From IMG/VR virus record IMGVR_UViG_3300034102_002845: a DNA stretch of 64,000 nt, one strand, 5' to 3'. Made by a program: the position numbers and the translations under genes. Under the pieces are notes generated by a model. It worked only from the letters and a program-made list of their open reading frames with translations. It was not told the DNA's origin and made no database searches. Source of the stretch: a virus (taxonomy: Duplodnaviria; Heunggongvirae; Uroviricota; Caudoviricetes). This document shows, one piece after another, positions 52,530-58,917 of this stretch (positions are counted from its first letter, which is position 1; every line of letters begins with the position of its first letter).

Positions 52530-54017
52530 ATGACTTTTGAGACAGAAAATTTAACGAAGGGTTCTAAAGCCGCTTCACCCGGAAATGAAAAATGCAACGA
52601 TAACTGTTCTGTAAGTGAAGCCGTTGTCTGTGATTTACGCTCTCGCCAAGAGCCCCGCCGAATCGACCTCGACAAACTATACGAGTGCGACCCGAAAGAC
52701 TACATTGGCTATTTCGCCGACGAAACTTCTTACGACAATCTTATTCAAGAAGACTGCGACGTTTATGTGGGCGGAGTGAAAGTTGTTGCCTTTCGTAAGG
52801 CACTTTTTCCAAAGCTGCGCGATGGTTCGAAAGGTAGCCCGGAAACTTGGAAATACTTTCGCTGGGCAGCAAGAGACTTGTACTCCGACCAACGAGGTCT
52901 AGTTGCGGGTAAAGAACTAACTACTCAACTCGAGATAAGGGTAACAAACGGTATTCTAAACTTCTTCAAGAAGGCGATGGCCGGTCAAGTCACTGACGTA
53001 GAAGAGGCACTAAAAATTGCTTCTCTCTCCCCCGACATGTCAAAGCTCACTGTCCGAGTGAATGATGTTAAAAAGGACTTCCCAGAAATTGAGAAAGCTT
53101 TAGAACCTATCGAGAAGGAACTTCGCAAGAAAACGCTGAGCGAAGAAAGAAAAGTAGAGCTGAAGGAAGCGAAGGGTAGGGAACTTGCGAAGTGGTTCCC
53201 GACTTGGCTGTCTGAGACTTGGAGTGCGTCTAAGGACAAGGTTTCTGAGGCGAAACGTGCCGACGACAGATACGTGGGAAAACAATACCGTTCAAACAAG
53301 TGCTATTCCAACGTGATTGGTGCTTTTGATAGGGGTGCACGTAACCCCTACGGTCGACTAACTGCAACTACCGTTCGAGATTACGAAGGGTTCGTCAGTC
53401 ACACTGATATTTATCAAACCGCTTGTTCCGCACTCAAAGAGACCCTAAACACTCCTGAAAACCCTCGGTGGGACCGCCTTAACGAACGGTTCAGTAACGT
53501 GAAAGACCCGCACTACAACCTGTTCGGGACGGTATTCACTGCCCTAACGCTAAACTGGAATTTCCGCTGTGCGATGCACTACGACGGAAATAACTGTGAA
53601 GGGGGTATCGCCGTTCTTACCGCAATTACTCAGGGCGAATATGACGGCCATTACCTTGTGTTCCCTGAGATCCGTTGCGCTTTTGACCTTCGCGACGGAG
53701 ATTTCATTGCAGGCGACAACCAGGGCTTGATTCACGGCAACACCGCGATGATCCCGAAAACTCCGGACGCTGAACGAGTGTCGTTCGTTTTCTATTCACG
53801 AGAGCGCATGACCGTTCTTGACGACATGGAGTGCGAGGACTGCCGCCGAGATTTCATGCGATACGCGGCAGACAACCACAAGGAATACGGAAAGGGTCAC
53901 AAGACCTGGAATGGTGTCTGGAGCGGAATGTGGAAATCACCGGAATGGATGTCGTATAAAGCCGAACACGGCATGGAACGTTGCTCAAACACCAACTACT
54001 GGGGCACCGAGAATTGA
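52530..54017 (+). CDS. large protein with C-terminal 2OG-Fe(II)-oxygenase-like HxD...H core
   Basis: AMHYDGNNCEGGIAVL ... GDNQGLIHGNTAM with ~55-aa spacing. The N-terminal 300 aa are uncharacterised. Confidence 0.35.
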   Translation: MTFETENLTKGSKAASPGNEKCNDNCSVSEAVVCDLRSRQEPRRIDLDKLYECDPKDYIGYFADETSYDNLIQEDCDVYVGGVKVVAFRKALFPKLRDGSKGSPETWKYFRWAARDLYSDQRGLVAGKELTTQLEIRVTNGILNFFKKAMAGQVTDVEEALKIASLSPDMSKLTVRVNDVKKDFPEIEKALEPIEKELRKKTLSEERKVELKEAKGRELAKWFPTWLSETWSASKDKVSEAKRADDRYVGKQYRSNKCYSNVIGAFDRGARNPYGRLTATTVRDYEGFVSHTDIYQTACSALKETLNTPENPRWDRLNERFSNVKDPHYNLFGTVFTALTLNWNFRCAMHYDGNNCEGGIAVLTAITQGEYDGHYLVFPEIRCAFDLRDGDFIAGDNQGLIHGNTAMIPKTPDAERVSFVFYSRERMTVLDDMECEDCRRDFMRYAADNHKEYGKGHKTWNGVWSGMWKSPEWMSYKAEHGMERCSNTNYWGTEN

Positions 54018-54035
54018 GTCCTAAAGACTACCAAA

Positions 54036-54533
54036 GTGGCATTTAACGAACGAAACACAGCATTACTAACAATGGACACAAACAAACAGCTTAACGGTGG
54101 CGATGCGGAGCGGCAAGTTGCCTCGGGGATTAATGACCCCCGTGAATCAACAACACCCATTACAGACGAACAAATGTTCGGTCGCACCCGTACAAACTCT
54201 GCGGGAATAACTTACTCCCCCCGAGACATCGACGCGGAGCGGCAAGTTGCCTCAGGGATTAGTGACCCCCGTGAAGCACCAACCGCCATTACAGTGGAAC
54301 TCCCTGTAAACTTCGCTGAGGCTTTTCGATCGCTCGCTGAAAGAGAGGGGTTGTCGGAGGGTGACCTTATTGTACGATCGCTCGGGCTCTACTCCGTTGC
54401 ATCTCAAGCCGAGAGTGAAGGGTACGGACTGACGTTTACTCGTATTGAGGGAACCAACGACCTGACCGCCAAGGAAGCAATTCGCATCGAAGATGAGCCT
54501 GTTTCAAACTTGTTTATTCCGGGTAAGAGGTGA
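54036..54533 (+). CDS. repeat-containing protein
   Basis: Tandem DAERQVASGI(N/S)DPRE(S/A)(T/P)T(P/A)IT units flanking a copy of QMFGRTRTNSAGITYSPRDI. Confidence 0.35.
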   Translation: MAFNERNTALLTMDTNKQLNGGDAERQVASGINDPRESTTPITDEQMFGRTRTNSAGITYSPRDIDAERQVASGISDPREAPTAITVELPVNFAEAFRSLAEREGLSEGDLIVRSLGLYSVASQAESEGYGLTFTRIEGTNDLTAKEAIRIEDEPVSNLFIPGKR

Positions 54534-54577
54534 GACGGTTTCCCGCCCTTGTCTCTGCAGCGTATACACGGTAAAAT
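54534..54577 (+). promoter_or_regulatory. hairpin plus promoter cassette
   Basis: -35 ttgtct 54549-54554; 17-bp spacer; -10 taaaat 54572-54577; ATG 54587. Confidence 0.5.
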
Positions 54578-54586
54578 TAGCCACAG

Positions 54587-57046: not shown

Positions 57047-57117
57047 GCACCAAGGCGGTTTTCCGCCCTTTACTGTATGATCCTCCTCCCTATGTTTAGA
57101 ATAGCTTCCGGCTACCA

Positions 57118-57474
57118 ATGATTCCCGACCCGAAGAAAACCATCGTTTTCGATGTTGACGACACCATCCTCACAACAGAAAACCGCGATTACGAAAACTC
57201 TCTACCGAAGATGGAAGTAATTGTGGGTATGCGAGCAATGAAGGACGCAGAGTGGACGATCGTCTTGAATACCGCGAGGGGAATGGGTCGTTCAGACGGC
57301 GACATCGAAAGAGTGAGACAAGAAGTTATCGAGGAAATCGAAAAGTTCTGCACTAAATTCGATGTACCCTACGATACCATTTTGGTTGGAAAACCTTGGG
57401 CGGCATACTACGTAGACGACAAAGCACTGACCCCCGCTCAATTCTCCGCAAAATACAAGGAAATCGCACAATGA
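57118..57474 (+). CDS. HAD-superfamily phosphatase-like protein
   Basis: IVFDVDDTILT DxDxT motif and LNTARG motif II. Stop overlaps the start of the next gene (ATGA). Confidence 0.45.
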   Translation: MIPDPKKTIVFDVDDTILTTENRDYENSLPKMEVIVGMRAMKDAEWTIVLNTARGMGRSDGDIERVRQEVIEEIEKFCTKFDVPYDTILVGKPWAAYYVDDKALTPAQFSAKYKEIAQ

Positions 57475-58184
57475 AGAACGCACTAATTCTTGCTGCCGGT
57501 CGTAGTACTCGGTTTGGCCGAAACAAACTTGAGGAAAAGTTTGACGGGATGTCACTTCCTTACCTGGCTGCCAAGTTCGCTCTTGAAAACGGTGCGGAAA
57601 ACATCTATCTGACGCTCTCGCGCTCGGCGATTAAGACCGACGGGACACGCATCTACCATCCTGTTCTAGATGAAGTTTCCAAGATTTGCGACCCGATTGT
57701 TCGTTTCCAGAGTGAGGAAACTTACGGACCAGGCGCTGCGATTACCACGTGGGCAGGCGTGATCAATGGTCCGTTCACTGTTCTGTTTGGGGATAATTAC
57801 TACCACGGAACGATCCCCCATGCCGAACGAGTTTTACTTGGCTCTGACCTTGAGAACTCAGTGTGGTTTTCATATCTTCATAAGTCACTAAATCCACGAA
57901 ATCTTCAACTCGCCACAGTAATCGACAACTATGTGATTGAAAAACCACACGGACAACTCGAAGGCCGTTACTTCTGTGGTTTTGCCCGTTTCCCTGCGGG
58001 ATACCTTGACACCATTGGTGACCTTCGCAAGAGCGACCGTGGCGAGGTTGAAATTACGGATATGATAAACATGGCGGAGCATCGTCAAGCAGTATCACTT
58101 TCTTCCATGGGTGTGATATGGGGAGACTTAACTTACGAGGCGGATTGCGCTCGCATTCGGGAGCTTGTTAGTGAAGGGAAGTAG
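57471..58184 (+). CDS. sugar-phosphate (MobA/GlmU/LicC-like) nucleotidyltransferase
   Basis: MKNALILAAGRSTRFG is the canonical NTP-transferase G-rich loop. Confidence 0.6.
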   Translation: MKNALILAAGRSTRFGRNKLEEKFDGMSLPYLAAKFALENGAENIYLTLSRSAIKTDGTRIYHPVLDEVSKICDPIVRFQSEETYGPGAAITTWAGVINGPFTVLFGDNYYHGTIPHAERVLLGSDLENSVWFSYLHKSLNPRNLQLATVIDNYVIEKPHGQLEGRYFCGFARFPAGYLDTIGDLRKSDRGEVEITDMINMAEHRQAVSLSSMGVIWGDLTYEADCARIRELVSEGK

Positions 58185-58917
58185 TGGGGCCACCCTGGAT
58201 TTCTCTGGGGATTTCATACGGAAAAAGTGTAAGGATGCCGGTGAGCAGTGCGAGTGGTTTCGCATTGCTTCTCGGTATACCTTGGCACCAAGTGTTCGCC
58301 TCCCGCAAACAATCTGTGTGTCGGACTCAGATTACGACATTGAGTTTATTGAAGGTGTTTGTGGAACACAAATTGAATCTACACGTTTGATTGACACTTT
58401 GGTAGACCAGGTCTTCCTTTGGTCTAAGCTCCCTGCGTCAAGACACACGGACTGGGGGTCTTACAAAGAGCGTCTTCACTTAGAGCACGTTTCTCTGACA
58501 GACAGCGAGATAGTTCGTCGAACTTTCGATTTCCTCGACGAAATAGTTCCACTACCTTCCTCCTTCTCGCATGGTGACCTAACGCTTGAAAACATCATTG
58601 TAGAAAATAACGGGGGAATAGTTCTGATCGACCCTAATTTCAAGACGAATTTGTTTCAGTCTTACGTTCTCGACTTGGGTAAATTGCTACAGTCTGTCCA
58701 CAGCGATTACCACCGGTTGTTCAACTCACACCCAGGATGTGACCCTGCGCCTCTGTGCGCCCACTTGAGACAACGGCTAGGCAAACCCTTATGGACTCAG
58801 GCGCTGGCCGCTGAGATATCGCACGTGATCCGCCTGCGCAAGTACCGCACTTCCGCCCAGTGGCCGGTGGTTGACCGGCTGTTGGGGCAGCTGCTGGCTG
58901 AGGCCCAGGGATGTTAA
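58165..58917 (+). CDS. APH/choline-kinase-family small-molecule kinase
   Basis: FSHGDLTLENIIVENNGGIVLIDPN is the Brenner HGDxxxxN catalytic loop plus downstream D. Overlaps the NTase stop by 20 nt. Confidence 0.5.
   Translation: MLVKGSSGATLDFSGDFIRKKCKDAGEQCEWFRIASRYTLAPSVRLPQTICVSDSDYDIEFIEGVCGTQIESTRLIDTLVDQVFLWSKLPASRHTDWGSYKERLHLEHVSLTDSEIVRRTFDFLDEIVPLPSSFSHGDLTLENIIVENNGGIVLIDPNFKTNLFQSYVLDLGKLLQSVHSDYHRLFNSHPGCDPAPLCAHLRQRLGKPLWTQALAAEISHVIRLRKYRTSAQWPVVDRLLGQLLAEAQGC

Follow-up and report, generated by a model that had tools for sequence, protein, structure and literature searches.

We have analyzed a gene cluster at positions 52,530 to 58,917 of a 64,000-nucleotide stretch of DNA (hereafter the window) from the Caudoviricetes record IMGVR_UViG_3300034102_002845 of IMG/VR. 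It is probable, in our judgment, that this cluster of a cyanophage related to Synechococcus phage S-CBWM1 serves post-replicative DNA hypermodification, in which thymine would be converted to 5-hydroxymethyluracil (5hmU) and then O-glycosylated, in a manner resembling base J, from a nucleoside diphosphate (NDP)-sugar made by the phage. The cluster combines a TET/JBP dioxygenase, a TET-associated glycosyltransferase (TAGT) and a triad of HAD phosphatase, nucleotidyltransferase and kinase. These enzymes belong to recognizable families or folds with intact catalytic motifs, and both a five-gene core and a unit of triad plus glycosyltransferase are conserved in other phages.

In the proposed pathway, the dioxygenase would hydroxylate the 5-methyl group of thymine in phage DNA, yielding 5hmU. 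The APH-fold kinase would phosphorylate C1 of a host-derived sugar omega-phosphate, the small HAD phosphatase would take off the distal phosphate and the RmlA-like nucleotidyltransferase would turn the sugar-1-phosphate into an NDP-sugar, from which the TAGT would move the sugar onto the hydroxymethyl group. The resulting O-glycosyl-5hmU should shield the phage DNA from host nucleases. We infer this protective role and, by analogy with the AfhE/AfhF pathway of arabinosyl-5-hydroxycytosine phages, the order of kinase before phosphatase.

Organization of the cluster

All open reading frames (ORFs) named in the original prediction, which had been made from the letters of the sequence, are present on the plus strand where it had placed them, as read from their translations. 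The motifs that it had listed (HAD DxDxT, the NTP-transferase loop, HGDxxxxN, DxD and HxD...H) were all found in these translations, and the homologues agree. Homologues of each gene (40–98% identity) occur in the isolated phage S-CBWM1 and on independent metagenomic contigs, with the gene order retained; by these comparisons the genes are confirmed as real and their order as beyond chance. The window holds part of a phage genome, and near-identical copies of the cluster sit on contigs of 190–277 kb.

The end-to-end overlap proposed for the triad genes is visible on the DNA. The stop of the HAD gene and the start of the nucleotidyltransferase gene have the ATGA at 57471–57474 in common. The nucleotidyltransferase gene, whose stop is the TAG at 58182–58184, overlaps by 14–20 nt with the kinase gene, which starts either at TTG 58165 or, judging by homologues beginning with M/V-KGSSGA, at GTG 58171. 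A scan for promoters and terminators gave counts no higher than chance, so that the operon structure is read from the gene overlaps alone. For the glycosyltransferase, ATG 56219 remains the most likely start, rather than the upstream TTG 56180, with homologues aligning from 56219.

TET/JBP dioxygenase

The first gene (52530..54017, + strand) had been described as a 2-oxoglutarate (2OG) oxygenase-like protein and can now be specified as a long form (495 aa, with some 250 aa of additional N-terminal sequence) of the TET/JBP-family DNA 5-methylpyrimidine dioxygenases (5mYOX), with a predicted role as thymine-to-5hmU hydroxylase. Its match to Tet_JBP (PF12851) lies above the Pfam gathering score (51 bits with a cut-off of 34.9, E 1.2e-13). 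HYD...HGN is read in the translation, and the residues H350-x-D352, H402 and R424 are invariant in 30/30 aligned homologues. When a profile of 30 members was compared with the PDB, chains of human TET2 were the sole matches below E 0.1, with the iron- and 2OG-binding motifs aligned. The PF12851 match and the HxD...H/Arg signature of the double-stranded beta-helix place the protein in the TET/JBP family and predict that it oxidizes T or 5-methylcytosine in DNA. The family comprises at least 90 clusters of long proteins (440–510 aa). A ParB_N gene accompanied by a short (~280 aa) dioxygenase that has a C-terminal extension, the arrangement of the clade C1 type, was not seen, as neither the window nor S-CBWM1 has a ParB homologue. 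In the public record of S-CBWM1, the TET/JBP dioxygenase gp8 (L001:3729-5165; L numbers denote the loci fetched for comparison) is mislabeled as "putative SNF2 DNA repair protein."

TET-associated glycosyltransferase

The DxD glycosyltransferase of GT-A fold (56219..57046, + strand) matches PF20691 (E 2.4e-10, 41.1 bits with a cut-off of 27.5) as well as phrog_842. Its motifs IPTYGR, FDDDV, DDF and GGGT recur in the TAGT genes of ParB-TET phages as IPTxGR, DxD, DDF and GGxT, and orthologues of 62–82% identity lie directly 3′ of the TET gene in S-CBWM1, L008 and L017. The PF20691 match, the DxD motif and the adjacency to TET assign it, at the level of sequence, to the TAGT/base-J glucosyltransferase family, with glycosylation of 5hmU as its predicted function. 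Pyle et al. (2023, bioRxiv 10.1101/2023.12.21.572611) reported that such phage GT-A enzymes are structurally closest to the trypanosome base-J glucosyltransferase. The original prediction had offered either DNA hypermodification or the remodeling of surfaces. Since the oxygenase proves to be TET/JBP and the glycosyltransferase a TAGT, the former is favored and the latter recedes.

Predicted sugar-activation triad

The 118-aa capless HAD phosphatase (57118..57474, + strand), with DVDDT at residues 11–15, is a small AfhF-like enzyme of the type found in the AfhE/AfhF pathway. It matches TIGR01689 (NCBIfam, E 3e-24) and shares 36% identity with AfhF of coliphage HY126 (E 2e-18). PDB 1xpj (E 3e-20 for the window protein) is the top PDB match of both. 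The HAD protein, which matches 351 phage records, is predicted to act on a sugar 1,omega-bisphosphate and release its distal phosphate. In many of these records and in PHROG 1238, AfhF-like HAD proteins carry the label "phosphoheptose isomerase" (e.g., L026:3486-3863 and L023:5980-6336).

The nucleotidyltransferase (57471..58184, + strand) contains the loop LILAAGRSTRFG, as read in its translation. A profile built from seven homologues matched Sulfolobus tokodaii ST0452 (2ggo, E 3e-10) and Bacillus anthracis RmlA (E 1e-8) in the PDB, and the alignments of hidden Markov models (HMMs) to 2ggo, 3hl3 and 1mp3 cover GDN, EKP, S-RGE-EITD and W-D. NCBIfam models of archaeal GlmU and RmlA were matched with scores far below their equivalog cut-offs, and we therefore classify the protein at family level only, as a putative RmlA-type sugar-1-phosphate enzyme. 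A BLASTP comparison of this nucleotidyltransferase with AfhE gave no match. For PDB entry 9iqw, no literature was found.

The kinase (58171..58917, + strand) has an APH/choline-kinase/fructosamine-kinase fold resembling the C-terminal domain of AfhE and is predicted to be a sugar-phosphate 1-kinase. It matches PF01636 (E 1.7e-5), its translation contains HGDLTLEN and IDPN, and 29 homologues all retain K20, HGDxTxEN and D156. A single-sequence search of the PDB returned nothing and a profile search weak choline-kinase matches only. The AlphaFold2 (AF2) model (pLDDT 93.8) gave generic FN3K, APH and maltokinase folds in a Foldseek search of the PDB (TM about 0.6), so that these kinase matches do not point to a particular sugar. 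Against BFVD, one direct homologue was followed by the kinase domains of viral nucleotidyltransferase–kinase fusions (TM 0.74–0.76), and RB69ORF052c was among the matches (TM 0.59). Comparison with the C-terminal domains of four AfhE proteins by hhalign gave a probability of 92% (E 6e-7, 170 columns). The link of kinase and nucleotidyltransferase to AfhE is thus visible by profile and fold comparison only; tblastn of both proteins against 50,697 phage records found S-CBWM1 only. A Bud32-type protein kinase was also considered and rejected on score.

Taken as a set, the triad should convert a sugar omega-phosphate to an NDP-sugar via the 1,omega-bisphosphate, as suggested by the sequences of HAD protein and kinase and, for the nucleotidyltransferase, by analogy. 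The family and fold matches support the pathway of kinase, sugar-1-phosphate nucleotidyltransferase and phosphatase that had been proposed to feed the glycosyltransferase next to a 2OG oxygenase. The examples named for it at the time, AmgK-MurU-MupP and LicA-LicC, give way to nearer relatives, namely AfhE/AfhF and the HAD-APH and nucleotidyltransferase set for heptose. That the triad is itself an auxiliary pathway of the MupP/AmgK/MurU or LicA/LicC type, or that its kinase confers aminoglycoside resistance next to unrelated genes, strikes us as hardly credible. The superfamilies (HAD, APH-fold kinase, nucleotidyltransferase) are the same, Pfam gives weak Choline_kinase (E 0.0066) and APH matches, and the N-terminal domain of viral AfhE is reportedly MurU/LicC-like. 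Yet no such family is reached at a curated cut-off (Choline_kinase scores 16 bits against 29), the nucleotidyltransferase has RmlA-type sugar-1-phosphate motifs with RmlA and ST0452 as best PDB matches, the HAD protein is of the 118-aa capless TIGR01689/AfhF type, and relatives, L030 excepted, place the triad in a DNA-modification context. An aminoglycoside-resistance kinase, which the original prediction had named as a possible refutation, was rejected on score: the APH(3′) model of NCBIfam gives E 0.068 and 12.7 bits with a cut-off of 205.

Pentose, hexose and heptose are all candidates for the activated sugar, since no arabinose-5-phosphate or heptose (SIS) isomerase was found in the window, S-CBWM1 or any fetched locus, and since the nucleotidyltransferase is RmlA-like, neither MurU-like nor cytidylyltransferase-like.

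Conservation and exchange of modules

The order TET–glycosyltransferase–HAD–nucleotidyltransferase–kinase is kept in S-CBWM1 (gp8-gp12), L007-L010 and L017/18. In small phages (L013-15, L031, L032), Amidoligase_2, GATase, ParB_N, a 278-aa TET protein, the triad and a TAGT glycosyltransferase follow one another; the L013 glycosyltransferase is phrog_842 (E 1e-38), and L013, L031 and L032 fit the ParB-dependent clade C1 type. In L016, the triad is preceded by a thymidylate-synthase-like gene and a C5-methyltransferase and followed by a T4 beta-glucosyltransferase-like protein. The triad has a DNA glycosyltransferase and a 5-hydroxymethylpyrimidine generator beside it in every examined context except L030, where a nucleotidyltransferase–kinase pair without HAD (L030:8001-9469) lies on a 295-kb contig among FtsH-like, TauD and AAA genes. 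Together with the TET core, the contexts of L016 and of the small phages indicate that triad and DNA glycosyltransferase constitute one unit, which is linked to various 5-hydroxymethylpyrimidine generators.

These neighborhoods also bear on the idea that triad and glycosyltransferase act on a target other than DNA, such as an envelope polysaccharide, a virion protein or a small molecule, next to an unrelated dioxygenase. TIGR01689 is named for capsule biosynthesis proteins, a homologue of the HAD protein lies among sugar-metabolism genes without TET in cyanophage S-SKS1, and no DNA-modification gene is near the L030 pair. However, the glycosyltransferase belongs to the TET-associated type and stands directly 3′ of TET in S-CBWM1, L008 and L017, and the triad lies beside a DNA glycosyltransferase-type protein and either TET/ParB or a methyltransferase in all examined contexts but L030. 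We regard a non-DNA target as quite improbable, though less so than the recycling, choline or resistance pathways above. In S-SKS1 (L023:3604-9104), the AfhF-like HAD gene is located between an annotated DHBP synthase gene, a transaldolase and an NDP-sugar epimerase, and the same phosphatase family may work there in a different sugar pathway.

A related locus (L027:7507-16127) retains the backbone of the window, with DUF6915, SprT-like, TET, exonuclease and R2K genes, while TAGT and triad are replaced by GATase_6, ADDT and a P-loop kinase, i.e., a cassette of the amino-acid type. The retention of TET–exonuclease–R2K with a swapped cassette suggests that hypermodification cassettes are exchanged downstream of a shared dioxygenase. 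Two TET/JBP paralogues are often present in one genome (L027:7507-16127, L003:2992-6246, L017:1-8054).

From here, a fuller picture can be sketched, which we offer tentatively and would sooner doubt than assert. S-CBWM1-like cyanophages might carry 5hmU that is O-linked to a sugar other than glucose, with a donor made by a phage bypass from a sugar phosphate of the Calvin cycle or the pentose-phosphate pathway, and sister phages might combine the same dioxygenase backbone with a cassette of the amino-acid/polyamine type in exchange for the one for glycosylation.

Thymine or cytosine as the predicted modified base

Methyltransferases were sought in the window by a Pfam scan that covered every ORF with a length of 245 aa or more and 41/49 of the non-nested plus-strand ORFs of 130–245 aa. 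By Pfam, phmmer and a motif scan, no C5-methyltransferase was found in the 64-kb window. The complete genome of S-CBWM1, which has the same five-gene core, contains neither a C5-methyltransferase nor a ParB gene, and homologues of ThyA or of the thymidylate-synthase-like protein of L016 are absent from the window and from S-CBWM1. In both, the dioxygenase therefore lacks the neighboring methyltransferase that marks the 5-methylcytosine (5mC)-type clades A and B. S-CBWM1 encodes ThyX (the ordinary enzyme), dUTPase and dCMP deaminase and accordingly makes ordinary dTTP. In the window, a dTMP kinase (48967..49749, + strand; TIGR00041, E 3e-35) gives the context that ordinary thymidine nucleotides are supplied by the phage.

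Homologues of the dioxygenase with 29–49% identity adjoin GATase_6, ADDT (PF18724) and Ploopntkinase3 (PF18751). We read these neighborhoods as classical 5hmU (thymine) hypermodification clusters, the equation of ADDT with the transferases being our own. In experiments by O'Toole et al. (PMC13229309), ParB-associated and clade C2 phage TETs were T-dioxygenases, and a C5-methyltransferase occurred in only 6% of the mined 5mYOX pathways. Given that no methyltransferase was found in the window and S-CBWM1, that the homologues stand in 5hmU-type contexts and that L027 carries its cassette on the same backbone, thymine is the likely substrate and O-glycosyl-5hmU, as in base J, the likely product, to the extent that gene content can tell.

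The same pathway might instead run on cytosine, with a methyltransferase of the host, or one from another part of the phage genome, providing 5mC, which would be oxidized to 5-hydroxymethylcytosine (5hmC) and glycosylated. Characterized phage TET–glycosyltransferase clusters do act on 5mC (clade A/B; PMC8256090), the triad adjoins a DNA_methylase gene in L016, the only PDB matches of the dioxygenase profile below E 0.1 are chains of TET2, a 5mC enzyme, and the window holds only part of the phage genome. Set against this, the 64-kb window and the complete S-CBWM1 genome are without a C5-methyltransferase, characterized phage TETs of the 5mC type are directly adjoined by the methyltransferase, and the nearest contexts of the TET family in the window are of the 5hmU type. 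Cytosine is an unlikely substrate on this balance, albeit the most serious competitor of thymine.

Several points weigh against the thymine pathway as we propose it. The modified base of the window phage and of S-CBWM1 is predicted from genes alone. The window covers 64 kb, whereas the related contigs span 190–277 kb, and a methyltransferase could sit elsewhere in the genome. The occurrence of the triad beside the C5-methyltransferase of L016 indicates that it is not specific for thymine. With 440–510 aa, the dioxygenases are long compared to the characterized phage enzymes of ~290–300 aa, and published work found no activity in E. coli for certain clades of phage TETs. On the side of sugar activation, the match of the kinase to AfhE is at the level of profile and fold, short of established orthology, and that of the nucleotidyltransferase to the N-terminal domain of AfhE is weak (hhalign probability 52%). 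The arabinose and heptose precedents are moreover not directly transferable, because no isomerase for arabinose-5-phosphate or heptose-7-phosphate was found.

Accessory genes

In the lineage of the window, TET and glycosyltransferase genes are separated by an insertion consisting of a mosaic ORF, an exonuclease gene, a small ORF and an R2K gene. Two of the earlier assignments here are borne out. The exonuclease (54587..55180, + strand) is a DEDD 3′–5′ enzyme of the Rv2179c-like family (PF16473, E 8e-7; phrog_255 exonuclease), and the possible ATP-grasp protein (55366..56130, + strand) is a ligase of the R2K clade (PF14243, E 2.5e-20; PF18299, E 2.8e-19; 73.8 and 69.9 bits with cut-offs of about 26). 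R2K and exonuclease are both missing from S-CBWM1 and L007-L010 and thus stand outside the conserved core as accessory genes, and no exonuclease lies between TET and glycosyltransferase in S-CBWM1, L007-L010 and L017/18. The two genes occur together in the window lineage and in L027, and near the TET genes of the window lineage, of L017 and of L027, R2K or exonuclease genes are present even where glycosyltransferase or triad is lacking. For R2K.2 and R2K.3 enzymes, peptide ligation on proteins has been predicted (PMC4431377); the R2K ATP-grasp of the window might further decorate the product.

The mosaic ORF (54036..54533, + strand) is composed of an internal repeat and a copy of part of a DUF6915 gene. 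Two direct copies of a 71-nt sequence (54101-54171 and 54230-54300, 87% identical) enclose a 67-nt segment that duplicates, with 90% identity, the part of the DUF6915 gene at 50021-50087. A second TET/JBP paralogue (49% identity) lies directly 3′ of the homologous ORF on L003 and L004, which are near-identical contigs. The ORF is probably a deletion or recombination scar at the position of this second TET gene.

Downstream of the triad, a nucleoside 2-deoxyribosyltransferase-like protein (61058..61573, + strand; PF15891, E 9e-35), anticipated in the original prediction as DNPH1/NDT-like, and a weakly matching HD-domain protein (62039-62500) are conserved in the window lineage only. A role of both in the handling of modified nucleotides is possible.

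Other genes in the window

The window further encodes a phage tyrosyl-tRNA synthetase (19147-20418; tRNA-synt_1b, E 3e-66, with an S4 domain). Three RNA ligase genes, an AAA_33 kinase gene followed by a metallophosphoesterase gene, and three tRNA genes (Arg-TCT, Ile-TAT and Ser-CGA) are found at 14146-15255, 26272-27393, 60098-60730, 43872-45045 and 40613-41197, which suggests an extensive capacity for RNA/tRNA repair. PRPP-synthetase-like, NAPRTase-family and cytidylyltransferase-like proteins (5530-8093 and 43118-43621) are probable products of NAD salvage genes, of which the cytidylyltransferase-like protein may be an NMN adenylyltransferase. A 513-aa protein (33746-35287) matches DUF2828 (E 1e-33) and DUF7788 (E 2e-51).

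Implications

If the proposed pathway is true, a natural bacteriophage counterpart of kinetoplastid base J would exist in the cultured cyanophage S-CBWM1, and a compact module of three enzymes for sugar activation would free phages from the nucleotide-sugar pool of their host. The same sugar-activation module is found with thymine and cytosine pathways. DNA of this kind withstands restriction enzymes, and in aquatic viromes it can skew sequencing as well as the calling of methylation. In addition, two widespread annotations need correction: "phosphoheptose isomerase" for AfhF-like phosphatases and "SNF2 DNA repair protein" for the S-CBWM1 dioxygenase.

Comparison with known systems

The chemistry predicted here is that of kinetoplastid base J, made by JBP1/JBP2 and JGT: conversion of thymine to 5hmU by a TET/JBP enzyme, followed by O-glycosylation by a member of the TAGT family. 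Base J synthesis draws on cellular UDP-glucose, whereas the window cluster brings its own genes for sugar activation, from which we conclude that its donor is presumably different or scarce. The two systems also differ in the domain of their hosts, and the window cluster is without a J-binding or SNF2 domain. With MupP/AmgK/MurU and LicA/LicC, the cluster has the three enzyme superfamilies and the idea of salvage and activation in common, but there is no match at family level, and HAD subtype, nucleotidyltransferase subtype and genomic context differ.

Closer models for the triad come from other phages. In HY126, AfhE is an arabinose-5-phosphate 1-kinase and UDP-arabinose pyrophosphorylase and AfhF a phosphatase; in the arabinosyl-5-hydroxycytosine phages, AfhE phosphorylates C1 of arabinose-5-phosphate, AfhF removes the 5-phosphate and the N-terminal domain of AfhE makes UDP-arabinose (PMC13326640). 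The systems of HY126, RB69 and DLP3 (PMC13326640 and He et al., cited there) likewise feed DNA glycosyltransferases by means of a 1-kinase, a small HAD phosphatase and a nucleotidyltransferase. The HAD protein is a clear homologue (36%), the kinase is related at the level of profile and fold, and the order of nucleotidyltransferase before kinase is kept. In contrast to the AfhE fusion, nucleotidyltransferase and kinase are separate overlapping genes in the window, and the nucleotidyltransferase is RmlA-like where that of AfhE is described as MurU/LicC-like. The Afh phages use an arabinose-5-phosphate isomerase, whereas no homologue of the HY126 isomerase occurs in the window or S-CBWM1, and their acceptor base comes from a thymidylate-synthase-like dCMP hydroxylase instead of a TET dioxygenase acting on DNA.

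A second model is contig 53 of Pyle et al., in which the placing of heptose on 5hmC in E. coli depended on three proteins, a HAD-APH protein, a cytidylyltransferase and a glycosyltransferase (bioRxiv 10.1101/2023.12.21.572611); Table S5 of the same work places TIGR01689 in its APH category. Compared by description, both sets use a HAD protein, an APH-fold kinase, a nucleotidyltransferase and a glycosyltransferase for a non-standard sugar on a 5-hydroxymethylpyrimidine. In contig 53, however, HAD and kinase are fused (separate in the window), the nucleotidyltransferase is CTP_transf-like (RmlA-like in the window) and the glycosyltransferase is GT-B (a GT-A TAGT in the window), and the set was assayed on 5hmC in E. 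coli.

As a whole, the cluster is a member of the published class of phage 5mYOX–glycosyltransferase hypermodification clusters (Burke et al. 2021, PMC8256090; Pyle et al. 2023, bioRxiv 10.1101/2023.12.21.572611; O'Toole et al. 2026, PMC13229309), in which the co-occurrence of APH, HAD and NTP-transferase genes has already been tabulated. The earlier impression that its arrangement differs from known clusters is thereby corrected, as 5mYOX and GT-A clusters without a methyltransferase are catalogued (bioRxiv 10.1101/2023.12.21.572611; PMC13229309). Shared features are a TET/JBP dioxygenase beside a GT-A enzyme, the lack of a neighboring methyltransferase, which the authors read as a sign of thymine substrates, and the co-occurrence of APH, HAD and NTP-transferase genes. 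Unlike the tested enzymes of ~290–300 aa, the dioxygenases of the window family have 440–510 aa and an extra N-terminal region, the window cluster is without a ParB partner, and the reconstituted members of the class include none with triad and TAGT on a thymine pathway. Moreover, the window lineage is one of cyanophages and includes a cultured isolate. What the cluster adds to the published class is thus a long dioxygenase, a split RmlA-type module, a presumed thymine pathway and a cultured cyanophage lineage.

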